From an uncultured bacterium (GTDB lineage Bacteria; Hydrothermota; Tepidihabitantia; SM23-42; CAYGYG01): 64,000 bases of DNA. The stretch is taken from positions 11,121 to 75,120 of the forward strand of contig CAYGYG010000001.1 in assembly GCA_964354155.1 (NCBI GenBank). Reading direction: 5' to 3'. The position numbers were made by a program, and so were the translations under genes. Shown here in pieces: positions 3,808 through 42,433 of this stretch (positions are counted from its first letter, which is position 1; each line of letters begins with the position of its first letter). The notes below the pieces were generated by a model. The model ran no database searches. It had not been told where the DNA came from and was given only the letters and a program-made list of their open reading frames with translations.

Positions 3808-3826
3808 CGCGTAGTCCAAGAAGACT

Positions 3827-3853
3827 GGGGCCCCGCAAGGGGCCCCTTTTTTT
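3827..3853 (+). terminator. Rho-independent terminator downstream of the S8 protease gene
   Basis: Self-complementary stem GGGGCCCC-gcaa-GGGGCCCC followed by T7. Confidence 0.7.
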
Positions 3854-4613
3854 ACAGGTAGTAACTGAGAAAAGGTAAGTTCAATCCTTGAACATACAAA
3901 GCCAACAACGCTCCCAAACTCAGGAAGGGTCCAAACGGTATCGGAGTTTGGCGTTCTTTCCTGGTGCCGACCAGATAAATGCCCGCGATTAAGGCCCCGA
4001 GCAGTGCGGCAAGGAGTATTGCGATGAATGTGTACTTTAGACCCAGAAAGGCGCCGATCATTCCGGCGAGTTCGACATCACCAAAGCCCATGACTTCGCG
4101 ATGGTAGACGAGTCCCCCGACAACGCGCACCAGGTAGATCAGGCCGCCGCCGAGCACGATACCGGCCAGGGACGATCCCACCGTGCCCTCGGTAATGTGC
4201 AGGGCGATGCCGAGTGCAATACCGGGTAGGACGATTACTTCGGGAATGAGCAGGTGGACAAGGTCAATGACGGAACAGACGATCAGTATGCCGCAGAAGA
4301 TAAGATAGAGGAAGAACCCAAGGCTGAGCCCAAACCTGAGCCAGAGGCCGAGGGCGCAAGCCGCGGTGACGATCTCGACCAGCGGGTACTGGACGGAGAT
4401 CGGCGACTTGCAGCCCGAACAGCGGCCGCGCAGCAGGAGATAACTGATAACGGGAACATTCTCCAATGCGGCAATCGGTTTTCGACAGGCCGGACAGAAA
4501 GAGCTGGGCCTGATGATGGAAAGGTTCTGGGGCAGCCGGTAGATGAGGACGTTGAAAAAACTTCCGAGGCAGGCGCCGGCCAGCGTGACAAAGATGTCAA
4601 CCAATAGCGGCAT
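3852..4613 (-). CDS. pilD: Type IV prepilin leader peptidase (A24 family, PilD)
   Basis: N-terminal zinc-binding CxxC...CxxC tetrad (CPACRK...CSGCKSP). Polytopic membrane protein of ~250 aa typical of PilD. Confidence 0.8.
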   Translation of the reverse strand: MPLLVDIFVTLAGACLGSFFNVLIYRLPQNLSIIRPSSFCPACRKPIAALENVPVISYLLLRGRCSGCKSPISVQYPLVEIVTAACALGLWLRFGLSLGFFLYLIFCGILIVCSVIDLVHLLIPEVIVLPGIALGIALHITEGTVGSSLAGIVLGGGLIYLVRVVGGLVYHREVMGFGDVELAGMIGAFLGLKYTFIAILLAALLGALIAGIYLVGTRKERQTPIPFGPFLSLGALLALYVQGLNLPFLSYYL

Positions 4614-4818
4614 TGCTAAAAATAGCGCAAAATCGGCTTATGTCAATGCCGAAGGCAAGCTGTCCAGCCATCAAGCTATTGAGCAATCGAGCGAAGGGCA
4701 GTAGGAAAGGGAAGAGATCGCGGTTCTATCCGGTATCGTGGATCGGGCATCCAACTCATTCCCCACTTCATCACTGTAATCCGCCGTTCTATCACCGTAA
4801 TCGAAGCGTTTTGTCTGC

Positions 4819-4846
4819 TTGACAAACCGGTTCGCTTGCGTAGAAT
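4819..4846 (+). promoter_or_regulatory. Sigma-70-like promoter (TTGACA-16-TAGAAT) giving a near-leaderless transcript for the HIT gene
   Basis: TTGACA at 4819-4824, a 16-nt spacer, TAGAAT at 4841-4846, and the ATG at 4852 only 5 nt after the -10. The ORF-track start at 4819 is the -35 TTG itself. Confidence 0.5.
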
Positions 4847-4851
4847 CTGGC

Positions 4852-5325
4852 ATGCGCAGACTCTGGGCGCCCTGGCGCACCGTCTACATCAATGAAGCTC
4901 CGTCGAAGGGCTGCATCTTCTGCCGTGGCCATCAAGCGCGACATGACCGGAAGAACCTCATCCTGCATCGCGGTGAGGAGGGTTTTGTCCTTCTTAATCG
5001 TTTTCCCTACAGTAACGGCCATCTTATGATTGCCCCTTTTCGCCATGTGGGTGAGCTCTCCAAGCTGACACGCGTCGAGATCTTTGAGATGTTCGACTTA
5101 CTCAACCGGGCGATTGGAGCGATACGCAAGACGATGCGGCCGCAGGCATTCAATGTCGGCCTCAACTTGGGCCGGGTTGCGGGCGCGGGGGTTGAAGACC
5201 ATGTTCATATCCATGTGGTGCCGCGCTGGTCGGGCGACACCAATTTCATGCCGGTGCTGTGCCAGACCAAGGTCATTTCCGAGGCACTCGACTGCACCTA
5301 TCGGAAACTCAAGAAAGTCTTCTGA
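4852..5325 (+). CDS. HIT-family (histidine triad) nucleotide hydrolase/transferase, Ap4A-phosphorylase/GalT-like branch
   Basis: Histidine triad HVHIHVVPR. N-terminal WAPWR...CIFC motif typical of this HIT branch. The start is reassigned to the ATG at 4852. Confidence 0.75.
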   Translation: MRRLWAPWRTVYINEAPSKGCIFCRGHQARHDRKNLILHRGEEGFVLLNRFPYSNGHLMIAPFRHVGELSKLTRVEIFEMFDLLNRAIGAIRKTMRPQAFNVGLNLGRVAGAGVEDHVHIHVVPRWSGDTNFMPVLCQTKVISEALDCTYRKLKKVF

Positions 5326-5355
5326 TTCACTTCCTGAGCGCGACGGCGGCCTCCG

Positions 5356-7443
5356 GTGAAGAAGAATTCATCCATCAACCTTGATACACCGGTTCAATAC
5401 CTTAAGGGTATTGGTCCGATGCGGGCGGTCCGGCTCGAACGGCTCGGTGTTAAAACGATCCAGGATTTGCTCTACCTTATTCCCCGTCGGTACATAGACT
5501 ATTCCCGTTTGGTCAAGATCAGGGATACTAAGGTAAAAGATGAGGTGACGATCGCGGGCCGAATCGGTGCGGTCCAGTCGCGCCGCACCCGGCGCGGCGT
5601 CCCGGTGACGATGCTTGCGGTCACCGATGGTACTGGCGTGTTATCGGTGCGGTGGTTCAACCGGCCTGACCTTAAACGCCAATTCAGGGCCAACGAGCAT
5701 ATTATTCTGTCGGGCGTGGTCAGTTACTATACGGGTAAGCAGTTGGTCAACCCCAACTACGAAATTGTGAGCACCGACGACTCCGGCGGCGCACTCTATG
5801 CCGGCACCGTGATCCCGGTTTACCCCCTGACCGAGGGTCTTAACGTATGGGAACTGCGGCGCGCCATCAAGTCCGCCTACGAAAAAGTCGGCAACCTGTT
5901 GTCCGAGAGCCTGCCCGATTACCTTCTGAAGCGGAACCAGTTGGCATCGATCCGCGACGCGATCTACCAGCTCCATTTCCCGGCCGGCACCGAAGACGGC
6001 CTGGCGGCACGCCGGCGTCTTGTGTACGAGGAGCTTTTCCTTTTCGAACTCCTGCTGGCCCTTCGCCGCCGGCAGCTTCTTGCCCAGGCCCGGGGGTTTG
6101 CAATGACCGACCGCAAGGACCTGACCCGCCGATTCCTGGAGCATCTGGCGTTTGAACTGACCGGCGGTCAGCAACGGATGATTGACGAAATCAGGCAGGA
6201 CATGGCCTCTTCCCACATCATGAATCGTCTGCTGCAGGGTGATGTCGGCTCCGGCAAGACGGTGGTGGCACTCTATGCCATGCTCATCGCGGTCGAAAAC
6301 GGATTCCAGGCCGCGCTCATGGCCCCGACCGAGATCCTCGCGGAGCAGCACTACGCTTACTACCGAGACCGGCTGAACGCACTCGGTGTCACCAATGCGT
6401 TGCTCACCGGGAGCACGAAGAGAAAACTCCATGACGATATCGTTGAGAACGTGAAGACCGGTCAGGTCAAGATTGTGTTCGGCACCCACGCCCTGATTGA
6501 AAGCGCGGTCGAGTTCTACAACCTTGGACTGGCAGTGGTTGACGAGCAGCACCGGTTTGGGGTTGCCCAGCGGGCCCGGTTCGCCAACAAAGGGGTGACC
6601 CCGGATTTCCTGGTGATGACGGCGACACCGATACCGCGGACTCTGTCCATGACTATCTATGGTGATCTTGAGATATCAAGCCTTGACGAAAAACCCCCGG
6701 GCCGTAGGCCCATCGTCACCAAAGTGGTACGCGGCCGGGAGCAGGCCGCAGTTTTCGGTTTTATCCGAGAGCAGATCCGCGTCGGGCATCAGGCGTTTGT
6801 GGTCTATCCGGTGATTGAGGAATCGGAGCGGTTGGAACTGAAGTCGGCTACCGCCGCGCACCGCGAAATGCAGCAGACCTTTGCCGGCTGCCGCGTCGGC
6901 CTGATCCACGGACGGATGAGCTTTCCGGATCGAGTCCGGGTAATGGAGGAATTCCGCCGGGGGGGGATCGACATCCTGGTTTCAACCACGGTCATCGAGG
7001 TCGGCGTCGATATCCCTAACGCCATTATCATGGTAATCGAGCATCCGGAACGGTTCGGCCTGGCCCAGCTTCATCAGCTGCGGGGCAGGGTGGGCCGGGG
7101 TGCGGCCGAATCGTACTGTTTTCTCCTTGTCGATCGGATGGTTTCCGACGCCGCGTACGAACGGCTTTCCTATTTTGAAAAGACCGAGGACGGGTTTCGT
7201 CTGGCCGAGAAGGACTTGCAGCTGCGCGGGCCCGGCGAGCTGCTGGGGCACCGGCAGCACGGCCTGCCCGATTTCAAGTGCGCTGACTTGATCGATGACA
7301 TTGATGTGTTAAAGCGGGCGCGGGACGACGCCTTCGATCTGGTGAAGCAGGACCCGGCGCTGGCCTGGCCCGAACACCAGGCCCTTCGGACTTTGATCAA
7401 AACCCGGCACCGAGACCGCATGGAACTGCTCGGCATTGGCTGA
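5356..7443 (+). CDS. recG: ATP-dependent DNA helicase RecG
   Basis: Walker [12 protein letters not shown] and DEQH box ([10 protein letters not shown]). N-terminal wedge domain region, helicase C-terminal motifs (QLRGRVGRG) and a ~695 aa length. Confidence 0.9.
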
Positions 7444-31987: not shown

Positions 31988-32163
31988 TGCGCCGGGACGC
32001 ACCCGCGGCTGTATCGCGGAGGGGATGGTGCGTACCTGCTTCCGTATAACCTTACTCGTGTATCATGTTGCAGCACCGCCCTGAGACAAGAGGACGGCCG
32101 GTAGAATCCAATGGAATTTTGGGCCGGTTTTCCTTGTATACCAATGCGAGCACGGAGGTAAAA

Positions 32164-34434
32164 GTGAAAAACTTAATAGCATCCCTACTTCTGACAGTTG
32201 CACCGGTTATGGTGATGTCAGCCGGACCGGCCGGAGAAGGCGGCGGGCAGGATCTGTCGCCGTACTTTATGGTCCAGGGAGATCCGAAGGTTGAGCGTTT
32301 CCCATTGCTTGAGACCAAGGCCAAGGTCAATATCGCGGGCATGACCGCTGAAGTCGAACTGACCCAGGTCTACAAGAATGACGGCAAGAAGACGATTGAG
32401 GCGGTCTACGTCTTCCCGCTGGGCACAAGATCGGCGATTCACGCCATGCGTATGAAGATCGCGGACCGGGTCATCGACGCGGAAATCGAAGAGACGATGA
32501 AGGCCCAGAAGATATACGAGCAGGCCAAGGCCGACGGCAAGGTTGCTTCGCTGCTTGAGCAGAAACGCCCAAACGTTTTTCAGATGAAGGTTGCCAACAT
32601 AATGCCCGGTGACGTTGTCGAAGTCATTGTCCGGTATACCGAGATCCTGGTGCCGGAAGCAGGCGTCTACGAGTTTGTCTACCCGACCGTGGTCGGCCCC
32701 CGGTACACCGGCGAGTCATCGGCCAGCGACCTCAAGGGCAAGGACAATTGGGCGGTCTCGCCCTACCTGCACGAGGGCGAGGTCGCGCCGTACAAGTTCG
32801 ACATCAATGTCCACGTGAAAACCGGACTGCCGCTGGCCAAGGTCTGGGTGACATCGCATAAGGTTGATGTTAGCCGATCGGGCCGGGATGAAGCCGCAGT
32901 GACGTTGTCACCGAGAGAAGTGAACGGCGGCAACCGTGATTTCATCTTGAAATACACCCTCCAGGGCAATGCAATCCAGACCGGTCTCTTGCTCTACCCG
33001 GGCGAAGATGAGAACTTCTTCCTGCTGATGCTGGAACCGCCGGAAAAAGTGAACATCAGGATGGTGCCCGCCCGTGAGTATGTCTTCATTCTTGATGTCT
33101 CGGGCTCGATGTCCGGGTTCCCGCTCGACGTATCCAAAGCCCTGGTTACGAAGATCATTCAGAATCTACGGCACAAGGACTACTTCAACATCCTATTCTT
33201 CGCCGGCGGTTCGGATGTGCTTTCCGACCGGCCGCTACCGGCGACCGAAGAGAATAAGAAGCGAGCCCTCGAAATGGTCATGGCCCAAAGCGGCGGTGGG
33301 GGTACGGAGATCCTTGATGCCTTTAAGCGGGCTCTGGCCATGCCCAAGAAGAAGGGTCTATCCCGGATCATCGTTACCGCAACCGACGGCTACGTCTCGG
33401 TCGAAAAGCAGGTCTTCGACATGATCAGCGAGAACCTTGGTGATGCGAACTTCTTTGCGTTCGGCATCGGCACCGGCGTGAACCGTTACATAATCGAAGG
33501 CATTGCCCGCGTCGGTATGGGCGAGCCGTTCATCGCCACCACTGAAGAGGAAGCCACGCAGGTCGCCAGCAAGTTCACTAGCTACATCGAGAACCCCTTG
33601 CTGACCGATATCGACGTCCAGTTTGTCGGGTTCGATGCCTATGACGTGGAGCCGCTGGCGTTACCAGACCTCTTTGCCCAGCGCCCGTTGATTCTGTACG
33701 GGAAGTATCGCAAGGCCGCCGGGAGAATCAAGATAAGTGGCCGTACGCCGGCCGGCGACTATCGCCGCGAGATTGATGTTGCGGCTTTGCTTGAGAGCAA
33801 GGAGAACTCGGCGCTTAAGTACCTTTGGGCGCGGGAGCGGATTGCCCGCCTTGCCGATTACGGGCGAATCGGTATTGACGTGAAAGATGAGGTCACCAAG
33901 CTTGGATTGAAATACCATCTGATGACCGAATACACCTCGTTTGTCGCAGTTGACAAAATCGTCCGGAAGACCGGGGAGATCGAAACGGTCAAGCAGCCTC
34001 TGCCCCTGCCTCAAGGTGTCAGCGACTACGCGGTCGGCGGGGTAGCCAGCGCCAGGCCGTCGACAATGCCACAGGCCATCGGGCTGGCAGCAAGGGAAGT
34101 AAAGACTGAGGTCGACGACAAGCGGGGCGGCGAGAAGACGCCGGCCCAGCTGACGGTAACCGGCGGCAGCGTTCCGGCGGGAGTCAATCTGAGCGACATC
34201 GAGAATGCGCTTCTTGGACAACTGAAGGCGGACCTTGAGAAGGCTTGCAAGAAGTTCAAACTTGGCAAGCTGACGGTGAAACTCGTGATCGAACAGGGCG
34301 TGGTGAAGACGGTGACGGTTGAAGGCTTGAAGGTGAACGCCAAGGCAAAGTCCGAGATCGAAGCGATCATCAAGCGATTGAAGCTGAACGCCAAGTTGAC
34401 CGGCAATATCACACTGAAGCTGGCGTATCTCTAA
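32164..34434 (+). CDS. VIT + von Willebrand factor type A domain protein (secreted)
   Basis: GGAGGT Shine-Dalgarno 5 nt before the GTG at 32164. Signal peptide. VIT-like N-terminal domain. VWA MIDAS region (VFILDVSGSMSG...TDG). Confidence 0.7.
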   Translation: MKNLIASLLLTVAPVMVMSAGPAGEGGGQDLSPYFMVQGDPKVERFPLLETKAKVNIAGMTAEVELTQVYKNDGKKTIEAVYVFPLGTRSAIHAMRMKIADRVIDAEIEETMKAQKIYEQAKADGKVASLLEQKRPNVFQMKVANIMPGDVVEVIVRYTEILVPEAGVYEFVYPTVVGPRYTGESSASDLKGKDNWAVSPYLHEGEVAPYKFDINVHVKTGLPLAKVWVTSHKVDVSRSGRDEAAVTLSPREVNGGNRDFILKYTLQGNAIQTGLLLYPGEDENFFLLMLEPPEKVNIRMVPAREYVFILDVSGSMSGFPLDVSKALVTKIIQNLRHKDYFNILFFAGGSDVLSDRPLPATEENKKRALEMVMAQSGGGGTEILDAFKRALAMPKKKGLSRIIVTATDGYVSVEKQVFDMISENLGDANFFAFGIGTGVNRYIIEGIARVGMGEPFIATTEEEATQVASKFTSYIENPLLTDIDVQFVGFDAYDVEPLALPDLFAQRPLILYGKYRKAAGRIKISGRTPAGDYRREIDVAALLESKENSALKYLWARERIARLADYGRIGIDVKDEVTKLGLKYHLMTEYTSFVAVDKIVRKTGEIETVKQPLPLPQGVSDYAVGGVASARPSTMPQAIGLAAREVKTEVDDKRGGEKTPAQLTVTGGSVPAGVNLSDIENALLGQLKADLEKACKKFKLGKLTVKLVIEQGVVKTVTVEGLKVNAKAKSEIEAIIKRLKLNAKLTGNITLKLAYL

Positions 34435-34496: not shown

Positions 34497-36617
34497 TCAG
34501 AGAGAAGGAGGATGCCCTAAGGGCCTGTCCCTGGTTTCCCCAATCCCAACAACCTCATATTCTACATCGTTGATGCGGACCGTCTGACCCACGCTCTTGC
34601 CCAGCAATGATTTGGCCAGAGGTGCTTCGTTGGAAATGATATTCTTCTCCAAATCCGTGTCCCACCGTCCAAGAATCGTGTACGCTGTCTCAATCGCGGA
34701 ATTCGCATCTTTGAGCGTCACCCGGGTGCCGACTGAGACGTGGGTCGTATCGACCTGGCCGAGTTCGATGACCTTGACTTTCTCGAGCGCGCTTTCCAGG
34801 TCCCTGACCTTCTGATAGAGTTGATCCTGCCGTTCCTTTGCCACCTTGTACTCGAAGTTCTCGCTCAAGTCGCCAAACTCCCGGGCCCGGCTGATATCCT
34901 TCTTGTTCTCAGGGATTTCAACATCGAGGATGTGCCGCAGTTCTTCCCGTTTGCGGACGACGGCTTCTTTGGTGGAGTAGATGATCGCTTCGTCTTTGGG
35001 AAAGAGCTGTGGGAAGTGATGTTCGATGATGCGGCGATAGTCCTTTTTTTCGTGCTCGGCAAGAGCCTCGCTTGCGTCGAGGGCCACCAGAATCCGGCTT
35101 GCTTCGTCGGCGCCGGCATTACCGAGCAGGCGGTCAAAGGTTTCAAGGTCAAGAATCTTGAAGACCAAGGAACGGATGCCTTTGACTTGATCAAGGCTGT
35201 TTATCATTCTGAGCACGTAGGCCGGACTGTGGTACTCGGTAAGTTCACCCCGGGACATCTTCTTGAGGAGCCATTGATACTGTTCAACGTAGTTATGCGG
35301 GAGCATGAAGATTGTCTGAAAGAGTTCTCTGAGTACCTCAGGCTGCGCACTCAAATGCTTCTCGATTTCTCCAAAGAGGGCCGGCTCACGGCCGGCGAGG
35401 ATGAGCTTCTTGAGGACGCTGGTCCAGTCATCAGGGTGTTGGCGCTTGATAAGGCCGAGGAGATAGCGCTGGTGGTCGATACTTGAGAGTTTGTGGATGA
35501 TGACTTCGGGCTTGTGTTCGAGGAGAATTGTTTCGGCGTCGAAGCCCAGCCTGACGGCTGGGTTGTGATCCTGAAAGAGAAGCGCGACATCCAGGGCTAG
35601 GCTGGGCTCCCGGTCCCGATTTGGGGCTATGGCCTTGGCCAGGCGCGGGGCGATCAGTTCGAAAAGATCCATCTTCTTGCGGGCGTACTCTTCAGCCAGC
35701 AGGTACTTTCCCGGCAGGTCGGCTCGGTCAAACGCGGCGACTGCTTCCTCGTCTTTGTCAACGCCCGAGGCAACGTACTCGTACGTTTTCTGAGTTTTGC
35801 CCGCCACCCTTACGTTACGACTAGCTTCAATCTGCTTTCGTGACTTCTCCCAGACGCGGGTCGCTTCCTCTTTTTCGGCGAGCGTCTCAAGATAAGACTT
35901 GATCTGCCCGGGAGTGAGGGGACTGTTCATGCTTTTGATAATCAGCAAGAGAAGAGACTCAGGGTCATTGTCGACCATTTGCCGAAGCTCGGCTGGCGCC
36001 TTGGCCCGGCGGTAGTGGAAGCTGTCGACGGCGACGGGGATAAGGAGTTTACGTGCCACGTCGAAGTCGAGAAAGTGTCGGCCTTTTTTTTCGAAATCGA
36101 ATACGATTTCGCGTTTCGGAATAATGACCTCGGTGACGATGCCCAGGCCATAGTTTTCGAAGAAGAAGTAGTTGCCAACATCAAAAACGAGCAACGCTTC
36201 GAGTCTCTCCAGGGCTTTGAAGAACCCGTCCCTCCGTTTCAATCCGGAAATCTCAATGTATTTGTCCAGATTGAGGCTCGCGGGGTGAGCCTTGCGGTAG
36301 AGTCCGGAAACCCTCTCCCGCACCTTCAGGTCATCGGTGACGAAAAAAATGCTGTTCCGGCAGGCAATGATTGCGGACTGAAAGTCATGTTTCGATTCGA
36401 AGTCCTCGGTCAAGAGCTCCATGAGCATGAGCGCCTTGTCGGTTGCCCCGGCTTTCTTCAAAGCCTGGGCAATCGAGACGAACTCGTCAACCGGATGGCC
36501 GGCCTCCATCATATCCATCCAGCGGTCTTCTACACCTTCGAAGTTCTTGTTCTCGATAAGTTTGGCGATTTCGTCAGGCACACCCAATGATAGTGATTTT
36601 GACAACAGATTCAACAT
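34497..36617 (-). CDS. Large (≈707 aa) protein with C-terminal GreA/GreB transcript-cleavage-factor domain
   Basis: The C-terminal ~150 aa match GreA (coiled-coil EFGDLSENFEYKVAKERQ... plus an FKBP-like domain ...VEYEVVGI). The ~550-aa N-terminal region is helical and of unknown function. The start is taken at the ATG at 36617. Confidence 0.65.
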   Translation of the reverse strand: MLNLLSKSLSLGVPDEIAKLIENKNFEGVEDRWMDMMEAGHPVDEFVSIAQALKKAGATDKALMLMELLTEDFESKHDFQSAIIACRNSIFFVTDDLKVRERVSGLYRKAHPASLNLDKYIEISGLKRRDGFFKALERLEALLVFDVGNYFFFENYGLGIVTEVIIPKREIVFDFEKKGRHFLDFDVARKLLIPVAVDSFHYRRAKAPAELRQMVDNDPESLLLLIIKSMNSPLTPGQIKSYLETLAEKEEATRVWEKSRKQIEASRNVRVAGKTQKTYEYVASGVDKDEEAVAAFDRADLPGKYLLAEEYARKKMDLFELIAPRLAKAIAPNRDREPSLALDVALLFQDHNPAVRLGFDAETILLEHKPEVIIHKLSSIDHQRYLLGLIKRQHPDDWTSVLKKLILAGREPALFGEIEKHLSAQPEVLRELFQTIFMLPHNYVEQYQWLLKKMSRGELTEYHSPAYVLRMINSLDQVKGIRSLVFKILDLETFDRLLGNAGADEASRILVALDASEALAEHEKKDYRRIIEHHFPQLFPKDEAIIYSTKEAVVRKREELRHILDVEIPENKKDISRAREFGDLSENFEYKVAKERQDQLYQKVRDLESALEKVKVIELGQVDTTHVSVGTRVTLKDANSAIETAYTILGRWDTDLEKNIISNEAPLAKSLLGKSVGQTVRINDVEYEVVGIGETRDRPLGHPPSL

Positions 36618-36937
36618 CAAATATCAGATATCAGATATCAAAACGTGGAACGTACGAGAACCTATCGGGACTGACCCGTTGTGTAGGTCTGTCCCGGGTT
36701 TCCAATCTGTCATTGCGAGCCCGCCACGCTGCTTGGCGGGCGTGGCAATCTGCGGTTTTGCCCCATGATTCCATAATTCCACTATTCCATCATTCCGTCT
36801 TATCGTGGATCGTGTATCCTGGATCGAGCATCATCTGTTGCGTCCGTCATCGCCTCGGGCGACCGTCCATTCCCGCCTTGACACCCGATGGGGTGCGGGT
36901 AGAATGATCCGTGCGCGAACTCACAAGGAGGTCAGCC

Positions 36938-37777
36938 GTGAAGAGAGAATCAATATTGATGTTTCAGGTCGATGCCTTTGCTGATAAGCCATTCAATGGT
37001 AATCCGGCCGCGGTGTGCATTCTTAGGCGGCGGCTTCAGGACAGCGTCCGGCAGAGCATCGCCGCCGAGATGAATCTGTCGGAAACGGCGTTTCTTGAAA
37101 TCCTGGACAAAAAGCCCATCACTCAAAACCAAGAATTCGGCCTACGCTGGTTCACGCCCAAGGTCGAGGTGCCGCTGTGCGGCCATGCAACCCTGGCGAC
37201 GGCCGCGGTGCTCTTCGACGAGTTTGGTGTTCGGGGTAAGACGATCAAGTTTCATACCAGAAGCGGTGTCTTGCTGGCCCGGAAGGAAAAACAGGGCATC
37301 GTGCTTGACTTTCCGGCCAATCCGCCGCGGCCGTGTAAAGTGCCGGCCCTCCTGATGCAGGCCATCGGCATCAAGCGAGCCAAGAAGGTCATGTATTCAC
37401 CGGGCATGCGCATGCTCTTAATTCACCTCGGTGATGCCGCAGCCGTGCGAAGGCTGAGGCCGGACTTCGGACGCATGCGTTCGGCGACCGTGCCCAAGGG
37501 GGTACTGGGCGTGATCGTGACCGCAGCCGGCTCCAGGGGTGTTGATTTTGTTTCGAGGTTCTTCGGACCCTGGGTGGGTGTTAATGAAGACCCGGTTACC
37601 GGTTCGGCCCACACCGTGCTGGGCCCGTATTGGTCGGGGCTTTTTAAGAAGAAAACGATGACCGCCTTTCAGTGCTCGGCGCGGGGCGGTAAGCTCGCCG
37701 TGCGCGTGAAGACAAACAGTCGTGTTGAACTTGTCGGGAAGGCAGTGACGGTGTTGCACGGCATCCTTAGCGTTTAG
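36938..37777 (+). CDS. PhzF-family isomerase (phenazine biosynthesis PhzF-like)
   Basis: MFQVDAFADKPFNGNPAAV N-terminal signature of the PhzF/DAP-epimerase-like family. AAGGAGG Shine-Dalgarno 7 nt before the GTG at 36938. The ATG at 36959 is an alternative start. Confidence 0.8.
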   Translation: MKRESILMFQVDAFADKPFNGNPAAVCILRRRLQDSVRQSIAAEMNLSETAFLEILDKKPITQNQEFGLRWFTPKVEVPLCGHATLATAAVLFDEFGVRGKTIKFHTRSGVLLARKEKQGIVLDFPANPPRPCKVPALLMQAIGIKRAKKVMYSPGMRMLLIHLGDAAAVRRLRPDFGRMRSATVPKGVLGVIVTAAGSRGVDFVSRFFGPWVGVNEDPVTGSAHTVLGPYWSGLFKKKTMTAFQCSARGGKLAVRVKTNSRVELVGKAVTVLHGILSV

Positions 37778-37931
37778 TACAGGCGCATCAAGCACCGGTA
37801 TAGTGTCATTGTGAGGCAATCGCTAAGGGTAGGGACATGCCATGGCGTGTCCCTACTGTGTCTGTGTCATTACGTGCATAGGGCTTGATTTAGACAACAG
37901 CCTGAATATAATGAAATCCAAGGAGGAAACA

Positions 37932-38321
37932 ATGAAGTTACCTTTTGGTGAAATCAAAGAGAATGTGTTGACCGTGAAGTTCTCAACGGCTGACTACTCT
38001 ATCGCCTCGGTCTTGAATGCCGTCAAGCTGCACCTTGACGTTATCAAAGAGATGGACGTCCTTTTCCTCGGCGCCTCGACCGAAATCGTTATGGGACCGA
38101 CGCCGGTCTTCACGCCGGTGCCGGTAGTTGCCCACTTTGAATACGCCGGCAAGGGCAACCCGAAAGAAATCCTGGAAAAGGTCTACCGGACGGTTTGGGA
38201 AGGTATTGTCAATTCCTTCTGCGACGAGGCCTGCTGGGCTCAGTCCAAAGCTGCCTACTCGCAGTTCATCCACTCCCAGGCCGACTTGCTGCGTGCCCGG
38301 GTTGAATCGACGAAAGGATAG
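37932..38321 (+). CDS. Hypothetical protein (129 aa), first gene of the putative CHSA-tail/rSAM cluster
   Basis: AGGAGG Shine-Dalgarno 5 nt before the ATG at 37932. No recognisable family. Confidence 0.45.
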   Translation: MKLPFGEIKENVLTVKFSTADYSIASVLNAVKLHLDVIKEMDVLFLGASTEIVMGPTPVFTPVPVVAHFEYAGKGNPKEILEKVYRTVWEGIVNSFCDEACWAQSKAAYSQFIHSQADLLRARVESTKG

Positions 38322-38413
38322 TTGGATTTAGTCCGCCTAAGGCGGATTGGGATTTAGTGCTTGAGACGCTAATGACCAGCCGTCCAGATCTAGAAACGTA
38401 ATCGAGAACCATA

Positions 38414-39928
38414 ATGTCGACGTTGCTTGCCCTCCTGCTGATTTCCGTTAGTGCTGATCTCCGTTGGGTCGAGGTCGATGTCTCGCCCTTCAAAGACGGC
38501 CGCGCCGATTTTGTCTACAAAATCCGGTGGGATGTTAGCTCAGGCCAGATGCATGGCTTCTACCTCGAGGGTCTTTCCGTCGACCCTTACTTCGATTACG
38601 AAAACTCCCAGGCCCTGGACGGATCCGGCCGGTCCTACGCGCTTGACATAAAGCCGGTCGGGGGCCAAAAGTACGACGTTGTGCTGGCGGATGATCAGGC
38701 CTGTGGTCCGGGTGAGATAACCTACATCGTCCATTTCGGCGGCGACCTGGCCGGCGCGCGAAATCTGGCGACAACCACCAGCCCGGAGCATGGCGAACTC
38801 GTCGTTCTGAACTGGGCGCCTACTCAGTGGGACGAGTCGCTGGATCATTATACTGTCTATCTTCACTATCCGATCGAGGTGCCAGGACGGCAGGTCAGTC
38901 CAGACCAATACGGCTTCTTGACTGAACCTTTTATGAACAAGAGCTACCTGCTCGACTACTACGGACAGGAATACGAGGGGACCTATTATCTCACGGTGCA
39001 GGTCCACAAGACCAACCTTGCGGCTAATGAAAAAATGCCGATTCGGTGCTATGTGCCGGCGCGTTACTTCGAAACCGGGAAGTTCGGCCGAATCAAGCTG
39101 CCTACTGGAGAACGGCGGGGCGGTAGGGGAACTGGCATACCGTATGACATACTGTATACGCTGATTTCGATCGTCCCGTACCTCTTCTACTCAAACCGGA
39201 AAGCCAGGAGCGTCAAGAAGGCATTTGTCGATGTTCAGGCTTTGAGCTGGCTCAGGCAGGACTGGGTGCCGCCCAAAATAGAGGTCGCCACCTTCCGCAA
39301 GAGCGGCAAGATTGCCAAGCTCGATTTTGTCGAAGCCGCGCTGCTGCTTGATTTTCCTGTAAACAAGGTTCTGACCATAATGTTCAACAGCCTGGAGAAG
39401 TACGGAATCGTTAAGGTGAATTCGGTGAGCCCCTTGAGCATCAAGGTCCTGCACCTGCCGGTCGATGTCCGGTACTATGAAAGCGCCCTGCTGAGAACGG
39501 TCGGTGCCGACGGCACCGTGAGTGAGGATGGACTGAAGGCGGTGATTGGCGTGGTGGTTGATAAGGTCTCCCAGAAAATGTGGGATTGTGACGTTGAAGC
39601 GACCAAGGCCTACTACCAGAAGATGATGGTTGGTCCGGGGGTCGACGACCGATACAAAGAACCGGAGTACTATGACTACTTGATGGGCCGCGAGTTCAAC
39701 CGGCGCCGGCACTATTACGATATGGAACAGTCGATGGCGCCGGCCGCCGCGACGATCAAGAACTACTCAAATTTCATTCATAGCGAGGCCTGTCACAGCG
39801 CCTGCTATGTCCACACCGCCTGTCACGATGCCTGTCACTCGGCCTGTCATTCAGCCTGCCACTCAGCTTGCCATTCAGCCTGTCATTCGGCCTGCCATTC
39901 GGCTTGCGTGAGTGGAGGAGCACATTAG
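38414..39928 (+). CDS. Membrane protein with proposed DUF2207-like topology (signal peptide, extracellular domain, TM segment, cytoplasmic domain) ending in a Cys/His-rich tandem (Ala-Cys-His-Ser)n tail, the candidate substrate of the adjacent rSAM enzyme
   Basis: Signal peptide MSTLLALLLISVSA and a TM segment IPYDILYTLISIVPYLFY. The C-terminal 47 aa are ACHSACYVHTACHDACHSACHSACHSACHSACHSACHSACVSGGAH (11 Cys, 9 His). The DUF2207-like assignment is from architecture only. Confidence 0.7.
   Translation: MSTLLALLLISVSADLRWVEVDVSPFKDGRADFVYKIRWDVSSGQMHGFYLEGLSVDPYFDYENSQALDGSGRSYALDIKPVGGQKYDVVLADDQACGPGEITYIVHFGGDLAGARNLATTTSPEHGELVVLNWAPTQWDESLDHYTVYLHYPIEVPGRQVSPDQYGFLTEPFMNKSYLLDYYGQEYEGTYYLTVQVHKTNLAANEKMPIRCYVPARYFETGKFGRIKLPTGERRGGRGTGIPYDILYTLISIVPYLFYSNRKARSVKKAFVDVQALSWLRQDWVPPKIEVATFRKSGKIAKLDFVEAALLLDFPVNKVLTIMFNSLEKYGIVKVNSVSPLSIKVLHLPVDVRYYESALLRTVGADGTVSEDGLKAVIGVVVDKVSQKMWDCDVEATKAYYQKMMVGPGVDDRYKEPEYYDYLMGREFNRRRHYYDMEQSMAPAAATIKNYSNFIHSEACHSACYVHTACHDACHSACHSACHSACHSACHSACHSACVSGGAH
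39788..39913 (+). repeat. In-frame tandem 12-nt repeat (gcc tgy cay tcr) ×~10 encoding the (ACHS)n tail
   Basis: Ten units of 12 nt, one carrying a 6-nt insertion. The units differ mostly at synonymous third positions (tgt/tgc, cac/cat, tcg/tca, gcc/gct) while the encoded ACHS is conserved. Confidence 0.9.
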
Positions 39929-40172
39929 GCAATGCAAATATCAAATATCAAAATGCAAAAATTGAACGGCGAACAGCAAAGGGCAGAGAGCATGGGGCAA
40001 AGGGCAATAAGGAGGATACCGCGGGGGTGCGGAGGAGCAGAGGCGCCGGGGGTAGCAAAGAGCATGGGGCAGAGAGCATAGAACAAGAGAGCAGAGAGTC
40101 TCTTATCACTGCAATCGGCCTTTCTATCACTGTAATCGATGTCGCTGGCGGCCAGTGGGATAAGGAAAGAGC

Positions 40173-41525
40173 ATGACAGAAAAGAGCGACGTGATGTCCG
40201 GGTCTACAATACGAAATCAGAAGTTCGAACGCGACATCAGCTGGGTGAATGGGTTTGTGAAGAAGATCAGACCCTATATCCACGTCCGGCCTGAGGACAG
40301 TCTGCTCATTCTCATTCCGAATCAGGCGTACCGGCTGAACCGGACCGGGCTTGAGATCCTCAGTTACTTGCTGAAAGGCGGAACCGCCAGGCAGTTTGTC
40401 TCGCTGCTCAATCTCAATCAGAATCAGGTTGAAGAGATCCACTGGTTCTTTTCCGACTTAAGGGCAATGGTGAAGGGCTGTTTGCATGAGGGCGAGAAGC
40501 GCAGGGCGGTTGACTACTACGAATACAAGGGGCCTTTCAACAAGCTGCCCGTACTGTCTGAAGTCGCGGTCACGTATCGCTGCAATATGAAGTGCGAATT
40601 CTGCTATGTTGGCCGGCAAGAAGACTACGGGGAGCTGTCAACCGATGACCTCAAGACCGTTGTCAAGAAGATCCGTCTTGAGGCCAATGTCCCCTCGGTC
40701 AGCTTCACCGGAGGCGAGCCTCTGATTCGACACGATATTGTCGAACTCGTTGCCTATGCCCGCAAGATCGGACTCTGGACTAACCTCATCACCAATGGTA
40801 CGTTGCTTGACCGGTCCATAGCCGGCCGGCTCAAGAAGGCAGGTCTGTCCAGCTGCCAGGTCAGCTTGGAAGGAGACTGTGCCAGGACTCATGACCGGTT
40901 GACCGGGGTCCCCGGCTCGTTTGCGCGAACGATTGCCGGGATCAAACACCTGATCGATGCCGGTATTCCCGTCCACACCAACACGACGGTCTCGAAGGGC
41001 AATATTGAGCATCTCGAGGGCATCATAATACTTATCAGGGGAATGGGGCTAGCCAGGCTTTCGATGAACCTGCTGATACCATGCGGCGCGGCCTCATCAT
41101 GCCAGGAGCTCTGGGTCAGCTACACGGAGATTGGTGAGAGGATTCTGGAGCTGGAGCAGGCTGCGACAAGAGAGAACGTGAAGTTTCTCTGGTACTCACC
41201 GGTGCCGATCTGTATCTTTAATCCCATTGCCCAGGGGTTGGGCAACAAGGCATGCGCGGCGGTCAGCGGTCTATTGAGCGTTGACCCGCTGGGCAATGTG
41301 CTCCCTTGCTCCTCGTGGCCAAAACCGATCGGTTCGTTGCTCACTCAGCCTTTTATCGCGATCTGGAACTCGCTTGAAGCCGAGTATTTCAAGCAAATGA
41401 AATACGCGCCCGAGAAGTGCGGAGCGTGCGAGTCGTTCGCGGCTTGCGTCGGCGCCTGTCCCATCTACTGGGAGAGGGTAGGGACCCGGGAGCTTGAGGC
41501 GGGCGCCGTAATCGAGGTTTGTTGA
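40173..41525 (+). CDS. Radical SAM/SPASM-domain peptide-modifying enzyme with N-terminal PqqD-like RiPP recognition element
   Basis: rSAM cluster motif CNMKCEFC (CxxxCxxC) in VAVTYRCNMKCEFCY. C-terminal SPASM motif CGACESFAACVGACP (CxxCx5Cx3C) plus upstream auxiliary Cys residues. The N-terminal ~100 aa (LILIPNQAYRLNRTGLEILSYLLKGGTARQFV) resemble PqqD/RRE. Confidence 0.85.
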   Translation: MTEKSDVMSGSTIRNQKFERDISWVNGFVKKIRPYIHVRPEDSLLILIPNQAYRLNRTGLEILSYLLKGGTARQFVSLLNLNQNQVEEIHWFFSDLRAMVKGCLHEGEKRRAVDYYEYKGPFNKLPVLSEVAVTYRCNMKCEFCYVGRQEDYGELSTDDLKTVVKKIRLEANVPSVSFTGGEPLIRHDIVELVAYARKIGLWTNLITNGTLLDRSIAGRLKKAGLSSCQVSLEGDCARTHDRLTGVPGSFARTIAGIKHLIDAGIPVHTNTTVSKGNIEHLEGIIILIRGMGLARLSMNLLIPCGAASSCQELWVSYTEIGERILELEQAATRENVKFLWYSPVPICIFNPIAQGLGNKACAAVSGLLSVDPLGNVLPCSSWPKPIGSLLTQPFIAIWNSLEAEYFKQMKYAPEKCGACESFAACVGACPIYWERVGTRELEAGAVIEVC

Positions 41526-42433
41526 TGGAAGAGGCAAGAGAAGGTTACGCGGTCTTCGACAAGGTAAGCCCGGGCTTACGTGGTGCGGTTTCAGCCGGGC
41601 TGATTGTCCTGGCTTTTGCGGTCCAGACGAGCGCCAAGAGCTTCTGGTTTGGTGTACCGTTCCTGCTGGCTTGCATCGTCCTTAACTGGGTCCGCAGTGT
41701 TTCGACCAAGGCTGAACCGGCCACTGAGAAGAAGTGGGAAGAGGTCACCGGAGAGAGGGTACAGCGCGTCCTCTTGCAGGCGCGTCAGATCAAGAAATTC
41801 AGTACGGGCGGAAAGAGTATCGGCTGTCTGATTGCCCTGGCATTCGGGGTCGTCATTTTCTTGAACGTGATTGTGAGCAATGCGCGTCTGCCCTTTATCG
41901 CGACTCTGGTTATCTACGACACGCTGGTTCTGATCGGGGGCCTCGTGATCTCCGGACAGAAAAGCGCCTGGATGCCTTCGGGGTTGGATCTGAAGTCGGA
42001 GACGATTCTGAGGTTGGTTGAATCGCCAATCCTTAAAGGCGATCCCGTGGTGAAGGCCATCCCCCTGCTGGAAGTCGGCAAGACGGCCAAAGGGGATTTT
42101 CCGAGCGACATTCGGTTGAAGGTCAAGTTTGAAGGGGCGCCCGAAGACTTCCTGGGTATCCAGGGCCAGCTTTCAATCAACTCGGTCAAGGGCACAAACT
42201 ACCCGTACTTCTACTGCGTCATCGTTGCCAAGAAACCGTTCCAACTTCTGTCGAAGGTGGGTAATCCGGCGTTCAATAATCTGGTGATCGAGTCGGAAGA
42301 ACCGGCTGACGTCGATGTCGTGATTGTCCGGCAGAAGACGTCGAAGACCTCAGGCTATCACACGGATAAGAACCAGCAGGACTATATCCTGACTAATGCC
42401 ATTAACCTCGCCAAGACGATTCTGAAGCAGTAA
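41525..42433 (+). CDS. Hypothetical membrane protein (4 predicted TM helices + soluble C-terminal domain), translationally coupled to the rSAM gene
   Basis: ATG overlaps the rSAM stop (TGATG). Hydrophobic segments at residues ~25-45, 50-70, 100-120 and 125-145. No family assigned. Confidence 0.5.
   Translation: MEEAREGYAVFDKVSPGLRGAVSAGLIVLAFAVQTSAKSFWFGVPFLLACIVLNWVRSVSTKAEPATEKKWEEVTGERVQRVLLQARQIKKFSTGGKSIGCLIALAFGVVIFLNVIVSNARLPFIATLVIYDTLVLIGGLVISGQKSAWMPSGLDLKSETILRLVESPILKGDPVVKAIPLLEVGKTAKGDFPSDIRLKVKFEGAPEDFLGIQGQLSINSVKGTNYPYFYCVIVAKKPFQLLSKVGNPAFNNLVIESEEPADVDVVIVRQKTSKTSGYHTDKNQQDYILTNAINLAKTILKQ

Follow-up and report, generated by a model that had tools for sequence, protein, structure and literature searches.

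A conserved gene cassette pairing a radical SAM/SPASM enzyme with the Cys-His repeat tail of a predicted membrane protein in mostly uncultivated phyla

Introduction

[quoted passage not shown] To our knowledge, almost all of their characterised substrates are short, variable, secreted peptides. Here we describe a locus at which the likely substrate of such an enzyme is a cytoplasmic tail still tethered to a large membrane protein. The locus lies in a 64,000-nucleotide (nt) stretch of contig CAYGYG010000001.1 (assembly GCA_964354155.1, an uncultured bacterium of the Hydrothermota lineage), which is referred to below as the window. It belongs to a conserved cassette of three core genes, encoding a membrane protein that ends in Cys-His repeats (the tail protein), a radical SAM/SPASM enzyme and a third protein (p304), to which the window's clade adds a fourth gene (p129). 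The best overall explanation, to which we assign a probability of about 0.58, is that the enzyme, guided by its RRE, repeatedly modifies the cytoplasmic tail by radical chemistry, probably forming Cys thioether cross-links.

Radical SAM peptide maturation follows a logic of RRE, radical SAM/SPASM core and paired Cys-rich target (PMC10114670). The precedents closest to the present locus are Haft's CXXX-repeat targets, SCIFF/ranthipeptides and QhpD. The CXXX-repeat systems, a category recognised in silico from genome context, resemble the present locus in that a SPASM radical SAM enzyme adjoins a target with about ten Cys-x-x-x repeats. Their targets are short peptides, whereas the repeats here form the tail of a 500-600-aa (amino acid) membrane protein, consist of an A-C-H-S/D unit with a fixed ACVSGG end, and are accompanied by p304 and p129, neither of which has an NCBIfam match. 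The target model TIGR04117 ('Cys-Xaa-Xaa-Xaa repeat radical SAM target protein') scored the tail at 13-15 bits against a cut-off of 50 (E = 0.02-0.07), and some tail-protein homologues carry a weak precomputed match to PF27846 ('tSAM_targ_Cxxx_rpt'). TIGR04115, which we take to be the CXXX-repeat maturase, with TIGR04116 presumably its partner protein, was not among the best 25 of the 88 NCBIfam matches of the enzyme and hence scored below 75 bits. The initial annotation of the locus, which had been read from the DNA by a model, stated that it knew of no described system; this was somewhat too broad, given that Cxxx-repeat radical SAM targets are recognised in silico by TIGR04117 and PF27846, although the scores obtained here lie far below those models.

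SCIFF and ranthipeptide systems (CteB, Tte1186, PapB-freyrasin) likewise combine an RRE-radical SAM-SPASM maturase with a Cys-rich target, which in SCIFF is unusually conserved. PapB acts on six CX3D motifs, a case of repeated Cys-based thioether formation. The targets of these systems, however, are free peptides of ~45 aa with Asp or Thr acceptors at a fixed spacing that has no obvious equivalent in A-C-H-S, and SCIFF maturase models were absent from the best 25 of the 88 NCBIfam matches of the enzyme. The structure predicted for the enzyme is matched best by SuiB and SkfB, RRE-containing peptide maturases with solved structures, but these share 17-21% sequence identity with it and act on short peptides, with SuiB making a Lys-Trp C-C bond; SkfB has a twitch domain instead of a full SPASM domain (PMC10114670).

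The radical SAM/SPASM enzyme QhpD installs several intramolecular Cys thioethers in QhpC, which stays in a functional complex (PMC10114670), and the modification proposed here would also fall on a retained protein rather than a secreted peptide. QhpC differs in being a small soluble subunit without repeats and with a quinone cofactor, the sequence relationship is at superfamily level only, and the QhpA and QhpB genes are absent here. TvgB converts Val to cyclopropylglycine in the tandem TVGG repeats of TvgA, with a loss of 2 Da per event (PMC9062424). It is thus a radical SAM enzyme acting repeatedly on a tandem 4-residue motif, but that motif lacks Cys, the cluster contains oxidase and peptidase/transporter genes, and TvgA is a free precursor peptide. 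Given this precedent, repeat-directed radical SAM chemistry at the present locus could be other than thioether formation. The His-Xaa-Ser (Hxs) system, which the initial annotation named as the closest conceptual analogue, also has a repeat-containing target and radical SAM maturases; its repeat period is 3 as opposed to 4, and the cassette described here lacks an HxsB/HxsD-type second enzyme.

RRE-radical SAM/SPASM maturation with a Cys-repeat target is therefore a known class; the new elements are the tethered protein tail, the motif, the partner proteins and the degree of conservation. No curated family model names any of the four proteins, which appear in the source records as 'radical SAM protein', 'hypothetical protein' or 'DUF2207 domain-containing protein', and full-text literature searches returned no paper on this system.

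Results

The tail protein

The tail protein and its predicted regions, all on the plus strand, are as follows.

38414 to 39928, plus strand: tail protein, 504 aa, predicted type I membrane protein with a C-terminal Cys-His repeat tail
38450 to 39058, plus strand: predicted ectodomain, aa 13-215, beta-sandwich, DUF2207-N-like
39140 to 39199, plus strand: single predicted transmembrane (TM) segment, about aa 243-262, followed by a K/R-rich stretch
39311 to 39748, plus strand: conserved cytoplasmic domain (predicted), aa 300-445, helices with a beta-hairpin and then further helices, predicted local distance difference test score (pLDDT) of ~90
39764 to 39784, plus strand: [YF]-x-x-F-x-x-[ST] motif (YSNFIHS) directly before the repeats, candidate RRE docking site
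39788 to 39925, plus strand: Cys-His repeat tail, 14 residues (not shown) followed by (ACHS)6-ACVS-GGAH

The initial annotation had described a 504-aa protein ending in ACHS repeats, and translation of this open reading frame (ORF) agrees, its C-terminus consisting of 23 residues (not shown) followed by (ACHS)6-ACVS-GGAH. The last 46 residues contain eight ACH[SD] units, 10 Cys and 10 His. At the DNA level, Tandem Repeats Finder detected a 12-nt tandem array of 5.9 copies with 83% matches (39830-39900), the units of which differ by synonymous changes.

An AlphaFold2 model of the tail protein, built with 42 sequences (mean pLDDT 82.7), contained a beta-sandwich at residues 13-215 (pLDDT >94), a long helix at 245-283 with the membrane segment at its start, and a confidently modelled cytoplasmic domain at ~300-445 composed of two helices, a beta-hairpin and further helices. 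The cytoplasmic domain carries the conserved motifs WxPPKIxV..FRK.GK and K.WDCD.EATK.YY, and the invariant residues of the tail-protein alignment include W284, P287, R295, K299, L303, E307, W390, D393, T397 and Y401. The [YF]-x-x-F-x-x-[ST] motif was found before the repeats in all tail clades, and we infer that it may dock the RRE of the enzyme.

The predicted order of regions is an N-terminal signal or anchor, the beta-sandwich ectodomain, one TM helix, the cytoplasmic domain and the Cys-His tail. The TM segment of the window protein aligned with clearly hydrophobic segments of other clades. Signal-peptide-like N-termini in most tail-protein clades, together with the K/R-rich sequence after the TM segment (5 K/R among 23 residues), suggest that the ectodomain lies outside and that the C-terminal 240 residues, tail included, lie in the cytoplasm. 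A tail that is cytoplasmic and flexible, as predicted, would be reachable by a cytoplasmic iron-sulfur (Fe-S) enzyme. The N-terminal domain looks like a distant relative of the DUF2207 N-domain (PF09972). The DUF2207 likeness proposed in the initial annotation was found at E < 0.01 in 14 of 30 family members (best E = 1.1e-8), whereas the window protein itself scored 18.5 bits, below the gathering cut-off of 24.4.

Conservation of the tail

In an alignment of 30 tail proteins, mean column identity was 40%, yet nearly all tail columns were invariant. An identical 45-aa core, 14 residues (not shown) followed by (ACHS)6ACVSGGA, was common to 32 loci from 32 species and was encoded by 32 distinct DNA versions. 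Third-codon-position identity among these cores averaged 46%, and their Ser codons were drawn from both the AGY and TCN families. An identical core with diverged synonymous sites points to long-term purifying selection on every residue and not to recent transfer. With 45 residues identical across phyla and synonymous sites saturated, few sequences in these genomes match the tail in conservation.

Comparison of 138 tails revealed Ala at repeat position 1 in 97% of units and His at position 3 in 98.5%; the Cys and His positions were invariant at 97-100%, and position 4 varied between S, D, G and N. There were 7 or 8 contiguous units in 122 of the 138 tails, a narrow range for a slippage-prone array, and the tails ended in ACVSGG[AGS][HR] or ACVSSGH. 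The repeat is far beyond chance: it lies in frame, and over 130 independent loci conserve it.

The tail was present in essentially all complete orthologues of the membrane protein. A profile search of 1.84 billion representatives returned 440 clusters at E ≤ 1e-10, in which apparent tail-less matches were mostly truncated or frameshifted ORFs. Three proteins of ~500 aa (P0282, P0294 and P0297) match the tail-protein body, end without Cys-His repeats and may be genuine tail-less paralogues.

A Cys-rich C-terminal core beside an RRE-radical SAM/SPASM enzyme is the standard RiPP layout, and long protein-derived leaders are found in Nif11 and NHLP precursors. The membrane protein could accordingly be an unusually long leader in a conventional RiPP cluster, with the repeat tail cleaved and exported as a secreted peptide. 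We regard this as very improbable: the core is hyper-conserved instead of hypervariable, the tail is predicted to be cytoplasmic and tethered, the alignments of p304 and p129 contain no protease-like invariant Cys/His/Ser set, and the neighbourhood comparison across phyla identified no peptidase or exporter conserved in or next to the cassette. For the last two reasons, the product of the proposed radical modification probably stays on the membrane protein.

Conservation of the pairing between enzyme and tail

An enzyme-alignment scan covering one genome per species (GTDB representatives) yielded 322 relatives, and the best 80 loci were examined for neighbours (individual loci are given L numbers below). 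A homologous tail gene ending in Cys-His repeats lay directly upstream of the enzyme on the same strand in 74 of the 80, in line with the co-occurrence of enzyme homologues and Cys/His-repeat proteins that the initial annotation had called for. Six loci lacked the tail gene: four had contig ends within 160 nt of the enzyme, one contained a run of Ns (L026) and one was a true exception (L073, discussed below). In L026 (positions 3330-5925, WOR-3 chromosome CP070686.1), two sulfatase-like genes (CSPSR/CSPTR) and then the N-run lie directly upstream of the radical SAM gene; the tail gene may be missing or lost in the gap, and the sulfatase adjacency may be an assembly artefact.

A second scan searched metagenomes with a DNA pattern for (A-C-H-x)4-A-C, which is blind to the protein body, and gave more than 120 matches, 80 loci of which were examined. 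True C-terminal tails (...ACHSAC[VH]S...) were present in 64 of the 80, and the enzyme was found on the same strand in 58 of these 64, immediately downstream in 51, with an intervening gene in six (p304 where detected) and upstream in one. Five of the six tails without an enzyme had ~1 kb or less of downstream sequence. The sixth enzyme-less pattern locus (L117:3649-5298) proved to be a false positive, the real gene encoding a PVTQ-repeat protein in another frame; the other ORFs of that contig look phage-like. Apart from the four tails described next, the remaining pattern matches (ACHP, ACHR, ACHW, ACHI) were short or out-of-frame simple repeats without a radical SAM gene.

Four 'SSCAGSF'-type tails were missed by the tail regular expression, and the enzyme was present in three of the four. 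Three distant tail variants (...CVSKF, ...CVSSCAGSF and a Promethearchaeota protein) keep a radical SAM/SPASM gene in the cassette. Two of these distant enzymes were compared with that of the window, and they were 35% (Promethearchaeota, L083) and 41% (CVSKF type, L085) identical to the window enzyme over nearly the full length, N-terminal domain included. Taken together, genomic association and enzyme architecture support the tail as a dedicated partner, presumably the substrate, of the adjacent enzyme.

Gene order varied in some lineages. A clade with 'YEH[AS]ACHS...' tail starts (L118, L119, L130, L156, L164) has the order tail, p304, radical SAM, and in Promethearchaeota (L083:3131-7764) the order is radical SAM, a 446-aa weakly DUF2207-like protein without a Cys tail, and the tail protein. 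The body of the ...CVSKF variant P0200 (L085:6001-7761) weakly matched the NCBIfam model TIGR04222 'near_uncomplex' (E = 9e-4), a domain that we take to mark membrane proteins preceding low-complexity C-terminal regions, which hints that odd C-terminal tails on such membrane proteins are a wider phenomenon.

The window comes from a WOR-3 bacterium. The genome locus closest to the window was L003, and a metagenome contig (L166) was 99% identical to the window. According to record names, the cassette occurs in WOR-3, TA06, Stahlbacteria, Planctomycetota, Armatimonadota, Elusimicrobia, Omnitrophota, Kiritimatiellae, Lentisphaerae, Sumerlaeota, Firestonebacteria, Fischerbacteria, Acidobacteriota, Spirochaetes, Anaerolineales, a Clostridia metagenome-assembled genome (MAG), Helarchaeota and Promethearchaeota.

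The radical SAM/SPASM enzyme

The enzyme and its features are as follows.

40173 to 41525, plus strand: radical SAM/SPASM enzyme, 450 aa (Pfam Radical_SAM, SPASM, Fer4_12)
40242 to 40472, plus strand: RRE-like N-terminal domain, aa 24-100 (helix, three strands, three helices in the AlphaFold2 model)
40581 to 40604, plus strand: CX3CX2C radical SAM cluster motif (C137, C141, C144), invariant in 24 of 24 members
41211 to 41471, plus strand: SPASM auxiliary-cluster region (C347, C361, G374-x4-C379, C416-x2-C419-x5-C425-x3-C429)

The protein belongs to the radical SAM superfamily (PF04055, 98.5 bits against a cut-off of 29.5) and to the SPASM subfamily (PF13186 / TIGR04085, 36 bits against 21.5), the latter with the CxxCx5Cx3C signature that the initial annotation had reported. 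Seven C-terminal Cys residues, those of CX2CX5CX3C included, were invariant, and C304 was present in 23 of 24 members. The canonical last SPASM Cys, downstream of CX2CX5CX3C, was found in only 12 of 24, and this half-missing residue could leave an open or partner-supplied ligand on one auxiliary cluster.

A PqqD-like RRE had also been proposed at the N-terminus. In an AlphaFold2 model of the enzyme built with 24 family members (predicted template modelling score 0.81), residues 24-100 adopted the RRE topology of one helix, three strands and three helices (pLDDT 75-91). In the last helix of this domain, C103 is invariant, and another position is Cys in 21 of 24 members but Ser in the window (Ser94). 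Foldseek searches of the PDB ranked the RiPP maturases SkfB (E = 1e-13) and SuiB first; SuiB aligned over 443-450 columns, N-terminal RRE included, whereas anSME and PqqE aligned over only ~330. At the sequence level, a lasso-peptide PqqD model weakly matched residues 53-82 (E = 0.0069), and Pfam PqqD was found in 4 of 24 family members and, as a precomputed match, in the distant orthologue L085; the window enzyme itself gave no Pfam PqqD match. The predicted fold thus upholds the RRE assignment, with sequence-level support that is weak but consistent.

Comparison with NCBIfam placed the enzyme outside the well-characterised non-peptide families, as no equivalog cut-off was reached. The best match was AhbD (167 bits against a cut-off of 500), and lower scores were obtained for NirJ2 (148 against 500), PqqE (119 against 381), StsB (NF045574, 103.7 against 625), MftC (99 against 265), HxsC4 (NF038332, 96.4 against 500), the radical SAM enzyme of the ACGX-repeat system (TIGR04340, 90.6 against 400), HxsC (TIGR03977, 76.2 against 267.9) and PapB (NF047865, 75.8 against 340). 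A tblastn search of plasmids with the enzyme returned only generic matches such as PqqE and MftC.

These results bear on whether the enzyme could modify the tail by chemistry other than thioether formation, such as His-centred C-C cyclophanes on H-S/D-A triplets (triceptide- or Hxs-like), TvgB-type within-residue chemistry, epimerisation or anSME-like oxidation of Cys to formylglycine. TvgB, also directed by repeats, performs unexpected within-residue chemistry on a 4-residue motif (PMC9062424), the His and Ala of the present repeat are as invariant as the Cys, anSME is among the structural neighbours, and HxsC and HxsC4 are partial matches. All of these model scores, however, are far under their cut-offs, and Cys is the thioether donor in the known Cys-rich targets of radical SAM/SPASM enzymes, namely sactipeptides, SCIFF/ranthipeptides and QhpC (PMC10114670). 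The enzyme does not fit the anSME family: the alignment spans ~330 of 450 columns and leaves the N-terminal RRE-like domain uncovered, the tail lacks the anSME motif C/S-x-P/A-x-R, and anSME models were absent from the best 25 of the 88 matches. We know of no anSME with an RRE. Non-thioether modification of the tail therefore appears quite unlikely, and Cys cross-linking is the chemistry that we carry forward.

Third core gene and surrounding genes

The other features of the locus are as follows.

41525 to 42433, plus strand: p304, third core gene, encoding a membrane protein of no known family whose C-terminal domain is soluble
37932 to 38321, plus strand: p129, 129-aa soluble protein, no known family, clade-specific accessory gene
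37885 to 37912, plus strand: promoter candidate, sigma-70-like TTGATT-16-TATAAT, 10 of 12 matches, possible operon start before the 129-aa gene
39929 to 40172, plus strand: purine-rich spacer of 244 nt between the tail stop (ends at 39928) and the ATG of the radical SAM gene (40173)
36911 to 37777, upstream of p129: PhzF (Pfam)

The stop codon of the radical SAM gene (TGA, 41523-41525) overlaps an ATG at 41525 (TGATG), which agrees with the translational coupling noted initially and is most plausibly the start of p304, giving 302 aa. A p304 homologue adjoined in 80 of 82 loci compared. Kyte-Doolittle analysis identified two strong hydrophobic segments at aa 101-144, and the alignment suggested two more near the N-terminus. 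The invariant residues include R21, W73, Q215, Q217, N221, P229, Y230, Y232, R271, Q272, G279, Y280 and T282. No match to p304 was found in Pfam, in NCBIfam or with the PDB sequence profile.

The initial annotation had also suggested that PhzF and the 129-aa gene might belong to the system. PhzF was linked to the cassette in 0 of 82 loci and can be set aside. In 29 of 82 loci, all of one clade, the tail gene was directly preceded by a p129 homologue (46-86% identity); these loci represent WOR-3, Stahlbacteria, Planctomycetota, Armatimonadota, Fischerbacteria and Acidobacteriota. In the window, p129 has a strong AAGGAGG Shine-Dalgarno sequence 6 nt before its ATG at 37932, and searches of Pfam, NCBIfam and PDB sequences returned no match. 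That p129 might be paralogous to the pre-repeat segment or mimic it (YSQFIHSQA against a 9-residue stretch, BLASTP E = 0.047) was rejected because the hhalign probability was 0.85% and the p129 Cys residues were not conserved.

The promoter candidate is weak evidence for an operon start, since sigma-70-like sites in the region were no more numerous than the shuffled expectation. The 244-nt gap between tail stop and enzyme start, as initially reported, is far longer than the spacer at most other loci and contains short direct repeats, one of 32 nt in two copies at 78% identity and one of 14 nt in two copies. A regulatory RNA in this spacer was rejected, with a structure z of 0.41, no Rfam match and a lack of conservation in the 99%-identical L166. 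Neighbouring genes at 32065-34434 and 34497-36620 of the window are unrelated to the cassette; read from their translations, one encodes 789 aa and includes the motif DVSGSMSG, which resembles a von Willebrand-A metal site, and another encodes 707 aa on the minus strand with a C-terminus that looks GreA-like.

Further genes accompany the cassette in particular lineages. In WOR-3 and Stahlbacteria loci (L006, L016, L017, L019, L020, L024, L029, L030, L072; e.g. L020:2207-4078), p304 is followed within ~55 nt by a same-strand gene for a membrane protein of ~600 aa, which is absent from the window and carries tetratricopeptide repeats (TPR) in the one member scanned (L020). In an Elusimicrobia clade, a membrane protein of ~185 aa ends at or overlaps the tail-gene start (L042, L051, L055, L056, L060, L061, L064, L066, L068, L069, L074, L076; e.g. 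L061:3727-4284). It had no Pfam match in the one member scanned (L061) and may be a clade-specific fourth component in place of the p129 of the WOR-3 group.

In the same Elusimicrobia clade, 12 loci have, downstream of the cassette and on its strand, a complete NifU gene with NifU_N, BFD [2Fe-2S] and NifU domains, which is mostly 18-110 nt away (L042, L047, L057, L060, L061, L064, L068, L069, L074-L076, L081) and is followed by a NifS-type cysteine desulfurase at nine (e.g. L061:8424-9293 and L061:9485-10684). The linkage may be a functional one involving Fe-S, or no more than synteny of that lineage.

The NifU and NifS genes are relevant to the possibility that the tail works unmodified as a metal or iron-sulfur module, whether by carrying clusters, by binding metal in the manner of a metallothionein or by lining up Cys/His metal sites in a chain, with the radical SAM enzyme docking to receive clusters or electrons from it, to be regulated by it, or to modify one or two residues only. 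The classical ligands Cys and His occupy invariant positions while position 4 varies, and the SPASM Cys missing from half of the enzymes makes a partner-supplied ligand conceivable. The Fe-S genes, however, are linked in one lineage only and may reflect inherited synteny, and no metal transporter, chaperone or regulator was conserved next to the cassette in phyla beyond Elusimicrobia. A simple metal-binding tail would moreover need no dedicated radical enzyme in essentially every genome, and an RRE fused to a radical SAM/SPASM core is otherwise known from enzymes that covalently modify a bound peptide, such as SuiB and SkfB (PMC10114670). We consider an unmodified metal site unlikely, and return below to repeated modification of the tail as the preferred explanation.

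Discussion

The combination of an RRE-like domain with a radical SAM/SPASM core, the strict co-occurrence of enzyme and tail, and a flexible, accessible, Cys-rich cytoplasmic tail leads us to take the tail as the substrate of the enzyme, which we hold to be likely on the basis of genomic association. In the mechanism that we propose, the enzyme would bind the tail protein through its N-terminal RRE, probably at one of two sites just ahead of the repeats, the conserved [YF]xxFxx[ST] segment or the cytoplasmic domain. Reductive cleavage of SAM would then generate a 5'-deoxyadenosyl radical that takes a hydrogen atom in each repeat unit, and this abstraction would be repeated along the tail. The most likely product would be a ladder of intramolecular thioether rings from Cys sulfur to carbon, sactionine- or ranthionine-like, resulting in a rigid rod that displays a row of histidines while still tethered to the membrane protein. 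The most likely role of the third core protein, p304, is to keep or arrange the enzyme at the membrane. Thioethers are preferred as they have the best precedent for Cys-rich targets, in sactipeptides and SCIFF/ranthipeptides; considered separately and by analogy, this chemistry has somewhat less than an even chance of being the correct one.

Several observations weigh against this interpretation. Invariance of both Cys and His would be expected just as much of a metal or Fe-S site that works without covalent modification. The repeat tail was modelled as a low-confidence helix (pLDDT <50), which is uninformative on metal-site geometry, and the lack of a confident fold of the tail alone is what would be expected if folding depended on metal. 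The TM segment of the WOR-3 clade is weakly hydrophobic, below the Kyte-Doolittle threshold of 1.6, and the topology is for this reason a prediction. The curated models closest to the enzyme are those of heme-pathway SPASM enzymes (AhbD, NirJ2), with the thioether synthases StsB and PapB scoring lower, so that the sequence gives no pointer to thioether chemistry in particular. Among the 80 genome loci, L073 (1107-2447) is the sole real exception to the pairing: an orphan, full-length radical SAM orthologue, 48% identical, on a 5.9-kb Planctomycetia MAG contig; the 1.1 kb upstream of the orthologue contains no tail gene, and p304 is absent downstream. No p304 homologue was detectable among the third genes of the distant variants, which means that a fixed three-protein machine is not universal.

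In its conservation pattern, the tail resembles the cofactor precursors PqqA and MftA more than it does antibiotics. Conservation this extreme argues for a housekeeping structural, metal-binding or redox role instead of that of a variable antibiotic, and the cofactor-precursor-like pattern suggests that the role is an unstudied one. A more specific picture, in which the tail is a covalently laddered Cys/His rod built by the radical SAM enzyme and serving as a fixed metal-binding or redox element on the cytoplasmic face, and not as a natural-product precursor, is doubtful at present.

The lineages over which the cassette is spread, Asgard archaea included, are mostly uncultivated, and very few of their functions are known. 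Both possible outcomes would be new: the tail could bear thioether rings in a ladder, or it could be a metal site that stays unmodified yet requires its own radical enzyme. If the laddered rod were true, it would represent a new class of protein-derived cofactor or prosthetic structure in many uncultivated anaerobic phyla and in Asgard archaea.

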